From: Gracilinanus agilis
Lineage: Eukaryota
Reading direction: 5' to 3'
DNA: 64,000 nt
Assembly: GCF_016433145.1 (NCBI RefSeq)
Contig: NC_058131.1
Span: 63,163,253 to 63,227,252 of the forward strand
The notes beneath the pieces were generated by a model that saw only the letters and a list, made by a program, of their open reading frames with translations, was not told the DNA's origin and searched no databases. This document shows, in pieces, positions 11,001 through 62,943 of the stretch. Each line of letters begins with the position of its first letter. The first letter of the stretch is position 1. The translations under genes and the position numbers were made by a program.

Positions 11001-11789
11001 ACTCTAGTTCTCCCCAGTCTTGTTCAGATCTCCCTCCATACTCTGGCCTGACTCCCCCTGATCTTTGGGTTGTTGGTTAAACTTCCACCTTCCAGTATTC
11101 CCCCAAGACCCTCACCTCTCAGGCCTACCTCCTCTTTTAACAAGCATTTATTAAGCTCCGACCATGTACCAGGCACTGTGCTAAGCTGGGGATACAAAGA
11201 AAAGCAGAAAACAGTCCTTGCCCTCAAGGAGCTCACAATCTAACGGGGAGACAACATGCAAACAACGATGTACAAGCGAGCTATGAACACGATGACCTGG
11301 AGATGATCAATAGAAAGCCCGAATTAAGAGGGCCCAGGAAAGGCTTTCTGTAGAAGGTGGAATGTTAGCTGGGCCTCTCCAGAAGGTAGGAATGGAGACA
11401 GGAAGGAAAAATTTGATTCCAATGGTACCCTCTTCAGCCTCTCTCCTCGCAAGCCATTCTCCTGGAGACCCCCTGCTGCTCCCTCCCCCCGCCCCGCTCG
11501 TCCCCGGTGTCCGGCCCCGGCCCCCGCTCGTCCCCGGTGTTCGGCCCCGGTCCCCGCTCCTTCCCAATGTCCCCTGCTCCTCCCCAGTGTCCGGCTCCGG
11601 CCCTCGCTTGTTCCCAGGTTCCCCCGCGGGGCTGGGCCGGGTCCGCACCAGTTTCAGGTCTAGGACTCCGTCCTTGGCCTCCTGCAGCAACGACACAAAC
11701 TTGGTCGTGAGCAGCCCCAGGCTCTTCTCGTGCCGGCTCGGGGTCCCGGGAGGCGGCGGCGGCGGCGCCTGCGGCCCGGACTCCGCCAT
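2096..11789 (-). CDS. E2F4: Transcription factor E2F4, 396 aa; exons 11649..11789, 10458..10567, 10102..10263, 8956..8999, 6892..6953, 6318..6600, 4698..4877, 3030..3077, 2293..2337, 2096..2211
   Basis: Recognisable segments: [47 protein letters not shown]; [37 protein letters not shown] (DNA-binding domain); marked-box region; C-terminal [23 protein letters not shown] pocket-protein-binding motif. Exons sum to 1191 nt and all phases are consistent. The exon 7 acceptor could be 4877 or 4883. Confidence 0.97.
5100..5740 (+). mobile_element. Degenerate CR1/L3 LINE 3' fragment in E2F4 intron 6
   Basis: Resembles the L3 ORF2 C-terminus and 3' end (aagctggag...ccaggagaacagccag...ttggaaaaaagaggg). 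Confidence 0.55.
5795..5976 (-). mobile_element. SINE1_Mdo-like SINE
   Basis: Reverse complement of the ggggcagctaggt...tcactt aacccc...ttgccta...ttctg consensus. Confidence 0.8.
9000..10101 (-). other. E2F4: U12-type (minor spliceosome) AT-AC intron 3 of E2F4
   Basis: 5' splice site ATATCCTC at 10101..10094, branch site TCCTTAAC at 9016..9009, 3' end CAC at 9002..9000. Splicing joins TG+C into a Cys codon and keeps the frame. Confidence 0.93.
10621..10644 (+). repeat. (ACC)8 microsatellite in E2F4 intron 1
   Basis: accaccaccaccaccaccaccacc. Confidence 0.95.
11140..11370 (-). mobile_element. L2 LINE 3' end fragment
   Basis: aacaagcatttattaagc...ccaggcactgtgctaag...ccctcaaggagctcaca is the reverse complement of the L2 3' tail. 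Confidence 0.7.
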
Positions 11790-12100
11790 AGCAGCCTGCC
11801 TCCCTAAGCCCAGGCCAGGCCGGCGCCCGCCGCCGCCACTTCCGCTTCCGCTCCCCAGTGCCCCGGCCGGCAGCAAGAGCGACACTTCCGCTCCGCACTT
11901 CCGTTCAAGCCCAGCTCGGGGCCTGCGCGTGCGGGCATGCGCCCCTGCTGGCCCGCTTCCTCGAGTCCTCGGCGTTCCAGGAACCCCGAGCAAATACCTT
12001 TCACTCGGAGAGCCGCAGAATCCCAGGGATCATGGGGAAAAGTCCAACCTCTACGGACAGCGAAAACAACCCAGGCTTCTGTTGGTTACCAGATTTGGCT
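11440..12100 (-). promoter_or_regulatory. E2F4 CpG-island promoter with clustered ETS (CGGAAGTG) sites and an NRF1-like site
   Basis: CACTTCCG at 11837, 11883 and 11896; CTTCCG at 11845; tgcgcgtgcgggcatgcgc at about 11924..11942. Confidence 0.8.
11491..11610. repeat. GC-rich 30-bp minisatellite in E2F4 intron 1
   Basis: Units at 11491..11520 and 11521..11550 differ at 2 of 30 positions; two degenerate units follow. Confidence 0.8.
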
Positions 12101-14047: not shown

Positions 14048-17000
14048 ATGGGCATGGATACTGAGGAGGGGCAGAAATCTGGAGCCCCCCAAGGTAATGG
14101 GCCAACCCCCCTGGGGGTCACTTTGGGATGCATGGGTAGATGGATGGCCTCAGAGAGAAGCTCCAAATACCTGGAGTCAGCCTTGGTGGGTAGCAGAGAG
14201 CGGGTATTGAGGTTGTTTTCCCAGAGATTGGGAATTAGCCACTTACCACCCAATAGAAGCAGCAAAGTCCAGTGGATGGAGGATGGGCTCTGGAGTCAGA
14301 GAAGTTGGACTTTTGTAGGCCATGCTACTTACTAGCTATGTGACCTAGGACAAGTGATTTATTTGACTTCTTGGGGCCTCAGTTTCTTATCTGTAAAATA
14401 AAGGGCTGAACTAGATAGCCTCTTAGCCCTAAATACTATGATATTTTGGTTTCTGTTATTGCACTCCATAACAATATGGTATTAAAAGATTTATAGAGTA
14501 CGCCTAACCAGACTCCCTTCTCAGCATTAGAGGAAACTAGGAGTGGTTAGAAGAATCACTCAGACCAGGTCAGGGCCTCAGCTTCTAGGAGCCAGGAGCC
14601 AGGAGCCAGTGACTTCCTGTCAGGGACAAGGGAGTGGGAAGCAGCTGTGGCTGATCACTTTTCCTGTCCTCCCCCCCTTCCCCACTCCCATCCACCTAAG
14701 CAGAGTCTGAGTGGCCAGAATTGGAGAAGGCTGAAAGGCTGGCCCGAGGGGCAGCCCTGAAATGGGCTTCAGGCATCTTCTACCGACCTGAGCAGCTGAC
14801 CAGGCTGGACCAGTACCGAAGTCGGGAAGCCCAGAGAATGTGTTCCATTGAGTCCCGAATCAAGGTGTGGGGTAGGGAGAGACTTGCCTTGGACTCCCTA
14901 AAAGTCATTATCCATGCATCCCTGGGCCCAATCATTCCCATTCTGTCCCAGGACTCCCACAATTCTGCCAAAGGACTATGCCCTGCCCATAACAGAATCA
15001 TGTTTAGAGGGACAACCAACGTTCTCTTCTCTGCCCCCTCCATCACTCCCCCACCTGCCACTGACCCCCACAAGTTCTCTCCCCACAGTCTACGATACAG
15101 TCATACTTGGAGAATGTGCAAACAGGCCTTGAACAGCTAAGCCTGGCACTGAAGGAGGTCCAGGAGGCTCGGGAAGCCCTGGCTGAGGCCCGGGGGGCAC
15201 TCAGGAGCCAGGCTGAGGCTGCCCACACCCTAGAGCCTCTCCGGGAGCTGGCTGATCAGCATGGACAACTGCAGGCTGTGACACTCTTACTGCCCCAACT
15301 CTTGGCAGGTGAGTAGACAGGAAGGGGTGGCATAATGCCCCGAGGCTTGCTCCTCCTAGGATCATAGGATTGTGCGATGGAAGAAACTTTAGAGTTCATC
15401 TGGTCCAACACCCTTATTTGAACAGAAAAGGAAGTTAGAGATTAAGAGAGGTTAAATGATAGCAGAGCTAGGATTCCAATCCAGATCTTCTGACCCCCAA
15501 TCTAATATTTTTTCTATTAGGCAATGCTGTCCTTGAGCACCAGCCCTCGTTAGGCCACTTGCACATTACCAGGGCCCAATCAGCTGGGCTAACCTGATAG
15601 CTAACCTGAACCAGTGAAGGGGCTTGGGTGAAGAGGACTCTGGACTTTTATAAAATATCACCAAGCCTCAAAATGGCATTGTAAATCAGCTCCAAAGTCA
15701 GAAGAACTGTAAAGGTCAAATCATCTTTTTTGTTTTCTGCAGTTTTTTTTAATCCTTATGTAAGATTAAAATTAATATCCAATAACTCCAAGTATTATAT
15801 TTTATAAAATTTATTAATAATCACTTGAAGTAGAAGAAATAAAAAGGCAAAAGTAAAAGCCTGAGTAAAGAGAAGTTTTCCCAGCTGCATTGGCACAAAA
15901 AGAAGAGAAGGGCAGGGTCACACACAAACTTTATCTCCAAAACGTAAGGACATAGTGTGCGTGAGAATGAAAGTGGGATGCTGGGAATTGGAGTCCTGGG
16001 GAGCAGATTCTAATTATACATTTACTTTCTGTCTTAGTAACAACTCTAAGACAGAAAGGCAGGGGCTAAGCAAATAGGGTTGTGATTTACTCAGAGTCAC
16101 ACAACTAGAAGTGTCTGAGGTCAGATTTGAGCCCAGGTTCTCCCAACTCCAGGTCTGGCGCTCTGCCCACTGTGCCACCTAGCTGAACCCATAGAGAAGT
16201 TAATAAATGTTTGCTAGACTGAATTTTACATTTGAGAAAAGTAAGTACAGATAGAAGTGATATAAATTCCCCAAAGTCACATAGCAAGTTCATGATAAGT
16301 CTAGAGAAGTCCTGATTGTCCACCCTGTTTCTGGGGCTCCCTTTGGGCCTTTTTCTTAATCTCCTGCTTCCTACTTTTCTATTCACAGTACCTGAGGCAG
16401 TGGCTAGAACCCAGGCCCTGATCCAGGGCCGTGGATTTCTGGAGGCCTACCGGGTCCTACGGGAGCTGGAGCAGTTACGGGATGAGGTGTTAGAACTGCT
16501 TGGGGGACCTGAGCTGCCCCTCTTTGAGGGTCTGACACATCTGGGGGAGGAACTGGGCCTAGCTGTGGGGAAGGTAGTGGGTTCAGCTCGGCAGTTGGCA
16601 CGAGATGATCCAGCCCTGCTAGTAGCTGCAGTGCGGGTGGCTGAACTCGAGGAGCAGAGGGATATTCAGCTCCAGTCGTCCTGCCCTGGGCGACCCAGGG
16701 CCTGGCGCCAACGCTGCCTTGGGGCCCTGCGGAGGGCCCTAGAGGAAGCCTACTTTGAGGCGCCGGCCCCTACTCCCTCCGGCCTGGCTGGACACCTGGC
16801 AGCTCTCCGAGAAGCTCTTCCTGCTGAACTTGCACTGGCTGAGTCCCTCGTGGCACCCTGCTGCCCCGCAGATTACGCCGTGGTGAAACTGTGGGCCCAC
16901 ACCCTGCACCAAGGCCTCTGCCAACACCTGCAGAGACTGATGGACTGCGAAGACCTGGGCAGCCAGGACATCTTCACCTTGTTGCACTGGGCTCTGCATA

Positions 17001-20000
17001 TCTACCCAGGGTCAGTGCCAGGCCGGGGTGGGGGAGAGGCGAGGCAGGGGGGACAGGGAGGGTGGGTAGGGCAAGTCACAGCAAGCTGGAGGAGATGAGG
17101 ATGGAGGGAAGGAATCTTCACAGCTGTCACTTTTCTGATTTCCCTCAGCCCTGAGATGATGGGGCGTCCTGACCTCAGTCCTGAGGCTGACATCTCGGAC
17201 CTCCAACCTTTGCTCTCCCTGGAGGCTGTGGAGCAGCTAGAGAGGACTTACACGGAAAAGATCAAGGTGAGGGTTTGAAGAAATAGAATCTCCAGGCAAA
17301 AGAGAAATTTCTTGGCTCAATACAGTAGGGCAGGACTCGCCTTCTCTAAATATTTCTTTGGCCTTCTTTTCTTTGAATGCTAGCAAAATATTTTAGAAAA
17401 ATGTAACCTCTGTCTTCTTGGGGCAATCCAGCTAGATTAGACAATGGAAGGAGACTACCAAAAAGGTCACCTGCTAGTATTTTGGAAAGCAACCTGGTGA
17501 ACTAGAAAGAACGTGAGCTTTTGAGTTCAGTAACCTGAGTTTGAATCTTAGTTTTCAGCTGGCACATCACTAGCTATATGACCTTGGACAGGTTGATTCC
17601 TCTCTCTTTCCTGAGCCTCAGTTTTTTTTAATGAATTTTTAAAATGGGAATAATTACATCAGTTAGGTGGCTTGGTGATTAAGAGCTGGGCCTAAAGATA
17701 GGAAATTCTAGGTTCAAATCCTAGGCTCAAATCTTCCTAGCTATGTGACCAGAGGCAAGCCACTTAATCCCAGTTGCCTTGCCCTTACCACTCTTCTCTC
17801 AATACAATCAATTCCTTTTTTTTTAACCCTTAACCTTCTGTTGTAGAAGCAACACTATGCATTGGTTCCAAGGCAGAAGAGTGGTAAGGGTTAGGCAATG
17901 GGGGTTAAGTGACTTGCCCAGGGTCACACAGCTAGGAAATGTCTGAGATGGGATTTGAATTCAGATGGGATTTGGTCACATTTTAAGTTGAAAGATTTGG
18001 AATCAGAATTCAAAGCTTGGGCTCATGTGACCTTTTGTTTTCTTTGTAAAATGAGAGAATTGGCCCAGATAACCTTCCAGACCGGGATGCTAACCATGAT
18101 ACTGAAATAGGCTCCCAGGGTCTGACCATCAGAAAGGACTTTGAGAGTCATTAGTTCAAAGGTGAAATAAAATGGCACCCTGGGTAAACACACATTCCCT
18201 CCTCCTGCCCTCAGTGCACTGGGAATCATAAGAAAATCTAACTGATAAGCATTTTAACAAAATAAATACTCTAGAATGAAGATAATTTTAATACATGGTT
18301 TTCTAAGTCAAAATGCTGCCACGGGCATCCTTCTGTGTGGTTTTGGGGCCCCCGTTTCTGAGTTTGACACCATTGGCTGGTCCAATCTTAACCTGCAGAA
18401 ATATGTTATTATCTGCATATATTATCATCTCCAAGTGGTCATCCAGTCTTTGCCTGAAGACCTCTAGAAAGGGGGAACCCACTTGCTCTGGCTCAGGCCA
18501 TTCCACTTTGGGAGAGCTCACCTTGCTTGTTGTTGTTGTTCAGTTGTATCTAACTCTTTGTCACTCCCTTTGGGGTTTTCTTGGCAAAGGTGCTGGTTTG
18601 CCATTTCCTTCTCTAGCTCATTTGATAGATCAGGAAACTGAGGCAAACAGACTTATAGACCTGACCTTATATATATGGTCACATATAGTATCACATAGCC
18701 AGTAAGTGTCTGAGGCTGGATTTGAACTCATGAAAATGAGTCTTCCTGACTACAGGTCCTGTGCTCTGTCCACTCCATCATCTCACTGCCCTTACTAGGA
18801 CACTCTAATCCTTAGGAAGTTGGTCTGGACTTTTTCTTTCTGAAATATTATTTCCTCATAGAGGATATGGGGGTCTATGTATATGTGTGCACCCTGAATC
18901 CTCTTTACTGCACTGTTTTCTGCCTTTTCTCTGTTCTTTTGATGACCCTCACCCAGATAAGTATAGGAGAATGGCTGCAGAAGGCTCTAGAAGGAGAGGT
19001 GGCTGAATGGTTCCGAGAGCAGGAGCCAGACATGGATCCTGAAGGTTTCTATCATTCTTCCCTGCCTGCTGTTGTTTTGCAGGTTTGTGCATATGTGTGT
19101 CGGGGACATGGATTGGGGGAAAGAGGAGAAGAGAATTGTTTGAGGTAGAGGAAAGTGTCAAGTATTTGTACTTTGAAATAATGGCTAACAGTATGCTACC
19201 CTGGGCCTTTCTTCCCCACCTTCCCCCCCACAGATCCTAGATGAGAATATCCGTGTGACAACCTTGATCAGCTCTTCTTTGCAGGAGAGAATATATGGCA
19301 TGGCCCTAAGGGAGCTGGGCACCTTCCTGAGAAGGTCTGTTCTACACCCCCCCACTTCTCCAGTGATATATACAATCCGTATGATCCCCCTGACTGCCAA
19401 CATAGAATCCACCATAGGCATTTCCAAAATGTCAAGGGTGAGGGCACTCTGAGGCAAAATACAAAGGAGGTGATGTGACCCAGTAGGGAAGAGTACTGCC
19501 TCTGTTCAATTCCCACCTCTGATGGATACTTACAACCTATGTGACCTTGGGAAGGTCATTTAAATCTTCCAGGACCTTGGTTTCCTCATTTGTAAAATAA
19601 AGGGTTAAAACAGACCAGATGGCCTCTGAGATCTCTTCCAGCTCTCAAGCTATAATCCTACAATTATGTAAAATGATGCAAGCAGGCCCTTATTTTTGCT
19701 TAGAGCCCAGTGACCTAATGAGAGGTAGTGGGGTAAAAAATGGATGTGGGGCTCAGCCCAAGTGGTGATGGGGTTCATGCATAAAGGATGGTGCTAGCTA
19801 AGCCACTGGTCTCTGCCTTTTCCTGGCTCCCCTGTGCCTTATCCTCCTCTCTCAGCCCTCCTCTGTCCCCAAAGTTTGACTGGCTAGGAATGGAAGCCAT
19901 GGTGCTGGTCCTGCTCACCCATTCTTCCTGGTCACAGCCTCCTGGAGGCACTGGAGCATTTCTCTCAAGAGCACCTGAAGGATGTATCTAAGCCCCGTCA

Positions 20001-52800: not shown

Positions 52801-53113
52801 CTCACTACTTACCCTCTTGTGGAAGCTTCCAGTTCCAATAAGGGTCTCTGGAGTCTTTCGGGTGGATCTCAGAGGCGCACTTCAGCAGCTCCTGACAAGC
52901 AAATTCACCTTTCTGCTGAACTATCAGCAGTACCTTGCGTACTATGCGCTCAGGGTCATCCATGGCATCCAAGGACTCATATTCACTCGCTGTGATGATG
53001 CCTCGGGAAAAAAGCCCATCCAATAGGATGACTGAGTCTTGTTTCAAGGTATCCACCAGGCGTCTTCGCTCCCGTTGGATCAGTTCTGAGGGCCTTTCCT
53101 GGAGGTTGCCCAT
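49829..53113 (-). CDS. NOL3: Nucleolar protein 3 / apoptosis repressor with CARD (ARC), about 262 aa; exons 52813..53113 and 49829..50316 (3' end uncertain)
   Basis: [23 protein letters not shown]...CARD; phase-1 donor G|GTAAGT; acceptor TAG|GA TAT; P/E-rich tail [11 protein letters not shown]; synteny next to MATCAP1. Confidence 0.9.
50595..50787 (-). mobile_element. hAT MITE, copy 2 (same family as 34961..35152), in the NOL3 intron
   Basis: Colinear reverse-complement similarity to copy 1, including both TIRs and gtggccatcaccgc.ttcctggatcactg. Confidence 0.85.
51325..51565 (+). mobile_element. MAR1-like CORE SINE
   Basis: ggcaggtaggtggc...ggaagactcatcttcctgagttcaaatcc...gagaaggaaatggcaaac. 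Confidence 0.85.
52312..52485 (+). mobile_element. SINE1_Mdo-like SINE
   Basis: ggggcggctaggtgattcggtgc...tactcttctgccttggga, then an A tail. Confidence 0.8.
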
Positions 53114-53314
53114 CTCGAAGGAGGAGGAGTGAAGAAGGAATCCTAGAACAGAACCATTTCATACTCCCAGGACAGTCGACCCCTCATCCCCACACAACCC
53201 TCTGTTCCCATACATAACCTACAACTTTCTGCGCTTTAGTTTCCTCATCTGTAAAGTGGGGATGTTAATACCTTTCCTACTTATCTCAGTCTTACTGTAA
53301 GAATCAAATGGACA

Positions 53315-61954: not shown

Positions 61955-62943
61955 TGTTATCATACAAGTTGATTTTATTCAAATGACTAAATGCTACTAA
62001 AATAGGGGACTAGTCAGTGAGTCCAGACCCTAGTAGTATGCCCAGAATTCTACTGCCACGATTCTGCTCATTGAAGAAGCTGAGGGAACTTGCTTCTGGG
62101 AGACATGGGATGCCATGTAATTGAAGTGCTTTGGATCATGCTTAGAGATTTGGGTCTACTCACCATGTGGTGAATAGCAGCTTCTTCAACAGGCTGCAAT
62201 TGCAGAATTAGAACTTGTAGTATACAGAATTGGGGTCATATAGTTTTTTCTAGCTTTGGCTGAGTTTAAAAGCAGCTCAACTGATTCACAACCTCCCTCC
62301 ACGGAAGATCCAGCCTTTCCTCAAGATTCTAAACCTCTAACAGCTTTTGGAACTCAGCCAAAGCTAGAAAAAACTATATGACCCCAATTCTGTATACTAC
62401 AAACTGGAGAGGCCATATTCAGCCTCAGGCTCTCTCTCTTTGCTAGATCTCTGTGATGAGTTTAGTTCCTTTGCTGATGGTGTCCAGTTGAGAAATGATG
62501 CTGTAAAGGGAGAAGCCTAAGGCTCTCTCTTCTAAGTTAGACAAGTGGCTCCAAGAAAGTGAATCACGTTCTTTTGACTTATTGTTTGTTTTTTTCCTTT
62601 TGTTTAACCTGGCATCTAAACCTTGTGAATCTCGAAAGGTCAAGAAAAGGGGCTACCTGGGAGTCTTGGCATCCAGGAGTCTAGAGAATATGGGGAGTCT
62701 GGGTGTTAATTTTATTCAAATGACTAAATGCTCCTACAACAGGGAACAAGTCAATGAGTCTAGACCCTACTAGTACTAACACCCAGAATTCTACTTCTGG
62801 GAGTCTGTCCATTGAAGCAGTCTAGTTGTTAAATCCAGATTGGGTTTCAGAGGGACCCCAGCACTGAAGCCCCTAGTGTGACCTTGGGAGTGCAGCCCAG
62901 TGGTGACTGAGAGGAGGACTCATCCAGAAGAAGCACGGTTACA
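61955..62943 (-). mobile_element. Probable ERV solo LTR with an internal ~110-bp direct repeat
   Basis: TGTTA...TTACA termini, flanks tttc/ttta, and two copies of a segment carrying AATAAA on the minus strand (61972..62080 and 62709..62820). Confidence 0.45.
62216..62401. mobile_element. 186-bp foldback/MITE-like element with 51-bp perfect TIRs, TGT...ACA ends and a 4-bp TSD (AACT)
   Basis: 62216..62266 is the exact reverse complement of 62351..62401; aact at 62212..62215 and at 62402..62405. Confidence 0.75.

Follow-up and report, generated by a model that had tools for sequence, protein, structure and literature searches.

The short inverted repeat analyzed here resembles two kinds of described element. 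Solo LTRs and proviruses of class I endogenous retroviruses (ERVs) have TG...CA termini and a 4-bp target site duplication (TSD) and are inserted by integrase chemistry. Ginger1 and Ginger2 DNA transposons have TGTNR termini, terminal inverted repeats (TIRs) of ~40 to 270 bp and 4-bp TSDs, Ginger1 preferring CCGG/CCGT and Ginger2 RTATAY as target, and in the available part of their description it is suggested that Ginger1 TIRs derive from two oppositely oriented LTRs flanking an integrase (Bao, Kapitonov and Jurka 2010, PMC2836005). The unit at positions 62216 to 62401 of the window (the whole 64-kb stretch of DNA analyzed) agrees with the Ginger description in its termini (TGTAG at both ends), TIR length (51 bp) and TSD length (AACT), but AACT fits neither target preference. 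It shares termini, TSD length and integrase chemistry with class I ERVs, and its arms are LTR sequence. Unlike solo LTRs and proviruses, it has U3 at both ends, inverted, and no R or U5, and it would have formed at integration rather than by LTR-LTR recombination.

The unit is 186 bp long and its first 51 nucleotides are the exact reverse complement of its last 51, as originally predicted, with pairing between the arms continuing imperfectly to 57 bp. AACT is present on both sides, also as predicted, and an exact 4-mer duplication is expected by chance at ~0.5%. The very stable hairpin expected from these arms is borne out by folding (z-scores of -13.5 for DNA and -15.4 for RNA; none of 200 shuffles was as stable). 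An 84-nucleotide core between the arms was also correctly measured, but it is not a separate interior: it is the right arm running on into the LTR. The unit holds only U3 bases ~1 to 140 and inverted bases 1 to 51, and not the complete U3-R-U5 of a solo LTR. It is two U3 ends of one ERV LTR, joined head-to-head between a 4-bp duplication (Table 1), as in the second option of the original prediction, an LTR-end fold-back with an integrase-type TSD. Because it has no PBS, PPT, R or U5, it is predicted to be a dead end, and the locus by itself is probably inert.

Table 1. Coordinates of the U3-U3 unit and its flanking duplication in the window
Feature	Position	Strand	Remark
Left TSD copy, AACT	62212..62215	.	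Solo LTRs of the family also have 4-bp TSDs
Short arm, ERV LTR bases 1-51 (U3 end, TG terminus)	62216..62266	+	PPT precedes this end in proviral 3' LTRs
Junction	62267..62268	.	2 untemplated bases, or 1-nt overlap plus one substitution; adjoins a 5-nt stretch fitting both arms
Long arm, LTR bases ~1-140 (U3), with a 7-bp deletion	62269..62401	-	Aligns to copy L003 at 94% (one mismatch, one 7-bp gap)
Right "TIR", last 51 bases of the long arm	62351-62401	-	Part of the long arm
Right TSD copy, AACT	62402..62405	.	

The unit lies among old repeats in intergenic DNA. The neighborhood is ordinary and gene rich, with coding exons for E2F/DP (11310-12029; below the Pfam cut-off), Sec6 (16316-17095) and CARD (52808-53158) domains. 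The CARD-encoding exon is ~9 kb from the unit, and exons of a heat-shock-factor-like gene lie at least ~10 kb away, beyond the window; from sequence and gene order, we take these genes to be NOL3 and HSF4, respectively. No further piece of the LTR family of the unit was found anywhere in the 64-kb window, and Rfam gave no match over the element. An older direct duplication (61968-62079 and 62705-62820; 79 to 87% identity, ~740 bp apart) brackets the insertion site. Contigs from four runs of one study contained no joint that skips the element, as an empty allele would, and only run X1, which may be the assembled sample, covers the flanks.

A DNA search of the same genome with the unit gave 1,990 candidates; among the best 40, which were scored, all except the locus itself and one other two-armed unit match only positions ~51 to 186 of the query. 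Read on the minus strand, the matched segment is the start of a ~975-bp LTR, and the first 20 bases of this LTR have 1,078 exact matches in the genome. The matched end is U3, because a PPT precedes it in 3' LTRs and a PBS follows the opposite end in 5' LTRs. Solo LTRs of this parent family have an exact 4-bp TSD in 11 of 16 cases (two of the misses lack the first bases), and two proviruses (L046 and L112) have paired direct LTRs, a PBS, a PPT and a 4-bp TSD. Proviral LTR pairs differ by 0.9% and 2.1%. Three ORFs of another copy (L047) contain the Pfam domains Gag_p30, RVP, RVT_1, RNase_H, rve and MLVIN_C, and Gag_p30 and the MLV-type integrase C-terminal domain suggest that the parent, a young gag-pro-pol ERV, belongs to class I (gamma/epsilon-like, "ERV1"). 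The ORF lists of two proviruses contain no ORF of env length between pol and the PPT.

Other irregularities were seen at the 5' ends of family members. The 5' LTRs of L047 and L048 are cut to ~30 to 43 bp of U3, with the U5 end or gag following directly, and the joint in L048 falls in the same gag stretch as an insert in L040 (see below). In five copies (L006, L014, L022, L023 and L027), the spacer between the CA of U5 and the PBS varies from 2 to 3 nt, and the PBS seems to match what we presume to be a tRNA-Arg end for only ~10 nt. The variable spacer and short match might impair formation of the U5 end.

Head-to-head U3 ends are not confined to the window. A pattern of two inverted U3 termini within 400 bp (longer spacers lie outside the pattern) matched 14 units with 16-nucleotide seeds and 46 sites with 11-nucleotide seeds, compared with 1 in the control. 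Subtraction of one chance match and one duplicate locus and addition of four longer units (514, 740, 1,043 and 8,094 bp) gave 48 units, 40 of which have an exact 4-bp TSD; three of the longer units came from the first 100 of the 1,078 LTR starts and one (L016) was met by chance, so that long units are undercounted. With a 6-nucleotide seed on one side there were 11 further candidates, and the seven with an exact TSD were counted in, the TSD being itself the criterion for four of these (arms of 7, 9, 9 and 10 bp). The genome therefore contains at least 55 U3-U3 units, 47 with an exact TSD. Left out were L062 (seed match only), L085 (same flanks as L067), L091 (seed only, among five direct U3-U5 matches), L086 (a U5 control match without family sequence beyond the seed), two nested seed matches, and L101, L103, L105 and L110 (6-nucleotide seed only, no TSD). 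These last four are single short U3 arms of 23 to 141 bp at which no second viral end was found. Set against ~1,000 LTR starts, roughly one insertion in twenty is a U3-U3 unit, with long units undersampled.

U3-U3 units range from 28 bp to 8,094 bp. Of the 48, 24 do not exceed 100 bp; 13 of these are no longer than 60 bp, without exception flanked by an exact TSD. The TSDs of the 48 comprise 43 different 4-mers, ATAT occurring three times. Nearly every unit has its own junction. The multiple copies with independent 4-bp TSDs envisaged in the original prediction thus exist as a class but not as copies of the window unit, as neither the own-genome search (best 40 of the 1,990 candidates) nor the 16- and 11-nucleotide inverted-U3 patterns gave a second copy of its junction. 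Repeated junctions are limited to three 28-bp palindromes overlapping in AATT, L052 and L076, which carry different LTR variants, and L038 and L071, with a 4-nt overlap, for which one secondary copy or move is possible. Short arms are 7 to 95 bp long (e.g., 55 bp in L054), with 14 of 48 at 14 to 17 bp. In one of the longer units (L016:598-1640), a complete LTR with 10 nt of PBS is followed by an inverted U3 arm of 51 bp, which stops at the LTR base where the short arm in the window also stops.

The two arms of a unit differ little: there are 15 substitutions in 1,559 bp (~1%) over the 48 units, which at the neutral rate that we assume corresponds to an order of one to a few million years. The lack of mismatches in the window unit had been ascribed to recent origin or homogenization of the arms. 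Since arm divergence of ~1% is like that of the family LTR pairs, a match of 51 of 51 has a probability of 0.3 to 0.6, and homogenization is therefore not needed.

The mirror class is absent. No U5-U5 unit was found with 17-nucleotide seeds (434 U5 seed matches in the genome, 17 in the control), and 11-nucleotide seeds gave one unrelated match where ~20 were expected at the U3 rate, the seed catching 11 of 24 U5 ends. Short direct U3-U5 units number four, one with an exact TSD. A second LTR family (~900 bp, 4-bp TSDs, with a PPT before the corresponding end in 1 of 19 copies examined) has 11 U3-U3 units (L115 to L125; 40 to 220 bp), seven with an exact TSD, and no U5-U5 unit, with 126 U3 and 116 U5 seed matches that may sample different subfamilies. 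The U3-only bias recurs in two ERV LTR families.

Among 47 junctions scored, 28 are flush or overlapping (0 nt, 9; 1 nt, 6; 2 nt, 7; 3 nt, 1; 4 nt, 5) and 19 contain inserts, the classes being approximate because long-arm ends were set against the available intact copies and six units were adjusted by eye. Overlaps of ≥2 nt occur in 13 of the 28, compared with 14.5% in a simulated null (p = 5e-5). Small inserts often look as if the arm had been copied by snap-back or slippage (L052, L073, L076, L039 and L080), a pattern typical of joining by polymerase theta, and reverse transcriptase (RT) is also a possible source of such inserts.

Larger inserts include 32 bp from just upstream of the PPT (L044) and a 68-bp gag piece in an insertion with three U3 ends, in which a complete inner U3-U3 piece is joined to a third U3 end and the outer TSD matches at 3 of 4 positions (L040:1497-1722). 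Cellular RNA is also represented. In L068:301-395 (G000:C3:83576229-83576323), 31 nt of U6 snRNA, antisense and primed from a 7-nt match at the end of an arm, lies between the U3 arms; Rfam missed this piece in L068, and it was identified through 41 exact matches in the genome, four of which are Rfam U6. In L077:301-640 (G000:C5:260121825-260122164), two U3 arms surround ~260 nt of the 3' end of a spliced, polyadenylated FAM177 mRNA. This insert crosses an exon junction, and its A-run, absent from both genomic copies, meets the T-run of the arm. L077 lies within a GT microsatellite and has no TSD, and its ends look unprocessed; three of the eight units that lack an exact TSD show TT ahead of TG and AA behind CA, like unprocessed ends (~1% each by chance). 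The U6 and mRNA inserts show that reverse transcription took place at the junction, which could have happened in the particle.

Arms do not have a strict minimum length of 14 bp, a possibility that was weighed, since some measure 7, 9, 9 and 10 bp. The cluster of short arms between 14 and 17 bp falls at the self-complementary AATT and is no proof of an integrase footprint. HIV integrase is stated, in the available part of the source, to protect 16 to 32 bp per end (PMC3185514), and the arms of 7 to 10 bp with an exact TSD, being shorter than this, would fit trimming after strand transfer.

Overall, we have high confidence that the window unit is an ERV integrase-era U3-U3 product. The class to which it belongs has two termini precise to TG, the TSD length of the family, recurrence at least 55 times, a bias toward U3 and junctions like those of end joining, some with reverse-transcribed inserts. 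The main route is moderately likely to be one with two donors, in which integrase pairs two separate U3 ends and the arms are end-joined later. Plus-strand priming at the PPT, the probable source, would produce surplus U3 ends; the ERV integrase would pair two of them from separate DNA pieces, unlinked at strand transfer; and the two inward-pointing arms would then be trimmed and end-joined, with a polymerase or RT adding the junction inserts. DNA is stiff, and duplexes of ≤60 bp should not be able to bend both ends into one intasome; since all 13 units of this size have an exact TSD, the arms were probably unlinked at strand transfer. The counts of 44 U3-U3, ~9 U3-U5 (corrected) and 0 U5-U5 units fit random pairing in a pool of about ten U3 ends per U5 end. 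The inner unit of L040 and the three units with unprocessed-looking ends indicate that some two-ended duplexes probably existed before insertion, and both routes may operate.

Formation of the whole unit by reverse transcription before integration, for which a PPT-primed plus strand would fold back, or anneal 3' to 3' with a second plus strand or packaged RNA, and be copied to the U3 end before insertion by integrase, is possible but rather unlikely. It agrees with the U3-only asymmetry in two families, the U6 and poly(A)-primed mRNA inserts, the three units with unprocessed-looking ends and no TSD, and private variants common to both arms. However, half of the 48 units measure at most 100 bp, and the two active sites should be out of reach for a single rigid duplex as short as the 13 of ≤60 bp, each of which has an exact TSD. 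Nor are the 28-bp units fold-backs, as their arms overlap in AATT and leave no loop. The fold-back route may be true for a subset of units. A replication template switch in a solo LTR or provirus already inserted, substituting an inverted copy of the LTR start for the 3' portion and retaining the old TSD, would account for the TSD and identical arms without unusual integration, and template-switch inversions are known. It is nevertheless improbable: the copy ends precisely at LTR base 1 and would need an equally precise rejoining at the old end, which has only 3 to 4 nt in common with the inverted start, and the absence of U5-U5 units in both families and the RNA-derived and distant viral inserts at junctions also argue against it.

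The first option of the original prediction, an undescribed young Ginger-like MITE family transposing as DNA, draws on the termini, TIR and TSD length compared above, and a single secondary move is possible for L038 and L071. Longer relatives with an integrase ORF were likewise to be looked for and are found in the form of the ERV with its rve domain, but this ERV also encodes RT; the ends of the unit are common to an LTR element with Gag, protease, RT, RNase H and integrase, and no RT-less transposase partner was found. Unlike a MITE family, the units are not amplified copies: the window junction is single-copy in the own-genome search and the inverted-U3 patterns, sizes span the range given above, and the other repeated junctions lie at microhomology or belong to distinct LTR variants (L052 and L076; the three 28-mers). 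None of the 48 TSDs is CCGG, CCGT or ACGG. Transposition as DNA is thus very improbable. The chance that the unit is a fold-back artifact of assembly or library preparation is negligible. Among the contigs of run X1 listed, none covers the inner junction at 100%, a gap that itself proves nothing, but matched 4-bp TSDs at 40 of 48 sites are not made by artifacts, and short-read contigs enter the element by 26 and 28 bases from its flanks at flank depth, which is below the 31-letter bridging rule and probably from the same sample.

An integration error in which ends from different donors are paired is normally known only from in vitro work, and these dozens of fossil products would be a readable record of it. 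The U3-only bias in two LTR families bears, in a testable manner, on the stage of reverse transcription at which integrase captures ends. In repeat annotation such units would be filed as MITEs or Ginger relics, and the class suggests that retroviral insertion has a common by-product that has been overlooked. We tentatively propose that germline ERV integrases routinely join two U3 ends head-to-head, with about one insertion in twenty becoming a TIR-bounded, TSD-flanked element. Such joining would continually supply MITE look-alikes and hairpins, allow cellular RNA to be captured between viral ends and, with gag-pol enclosed as in L045, produce the intermediate proposed for the birth of Ginger-type DNA transposons from LTR elements.

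Head-to-head U3 insertions are a recurrent and apparently undescribed class: a full-text literature search, which mostly does not cover older retrovirology in subscription journals, returned no description of U3-U3 mini-insertions. Pulsinelli and Temin reportedly described, in 1991, strand-transfer deletion products that were defective and had one truncated LTR. The asymmetric-LTR proviruses of HIV-1 (Joseph et al. 2022, PMC9278108) resemble the U3-U3 units in being defective replication products in which one LTR is truncated, but they retain a U3 end and a U5 end, directly oriented, and no U3-U3 product is described in the available part of that report; L047 and L048 are of this direct-orientation kind. 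Capture of RT products at double-strand breaks in mouse zygotes, as far as described in the available part of the source (Ono et al. 2015, PMC4516963), is similar in its microhomology of 1 to 5 nt and in its inserts of ERV pieces and spliced mRNA. In that system the break is made by Cas9 and the inserts have no LTR ends and mostly no TSDs, whereas here the break would lie between two U3 arms joined by integrase.

The nearest approach to Ginger is the 8.1-kb unit L045:568-8661 (G000:C1:276499067-276507160), which has 41-bp inverted U3 ends, the TSD TGTG, a full 5' LTR and a gag-pol interior that ends ~750 bp short of the PPT. This interior aligns at 95.6% to the stretch of L047 with the integrase region. 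L045 shows no sign of having moved, but it has the inverted-LTR shape proposed for the origin of Ginger1, and 41-bp inverted ends around a pol region make that 2010 hypothesis testable in genomes. Ginger termini copy the LTR pattern, and the likeness of the window unit to Ginger is real but borrowed.
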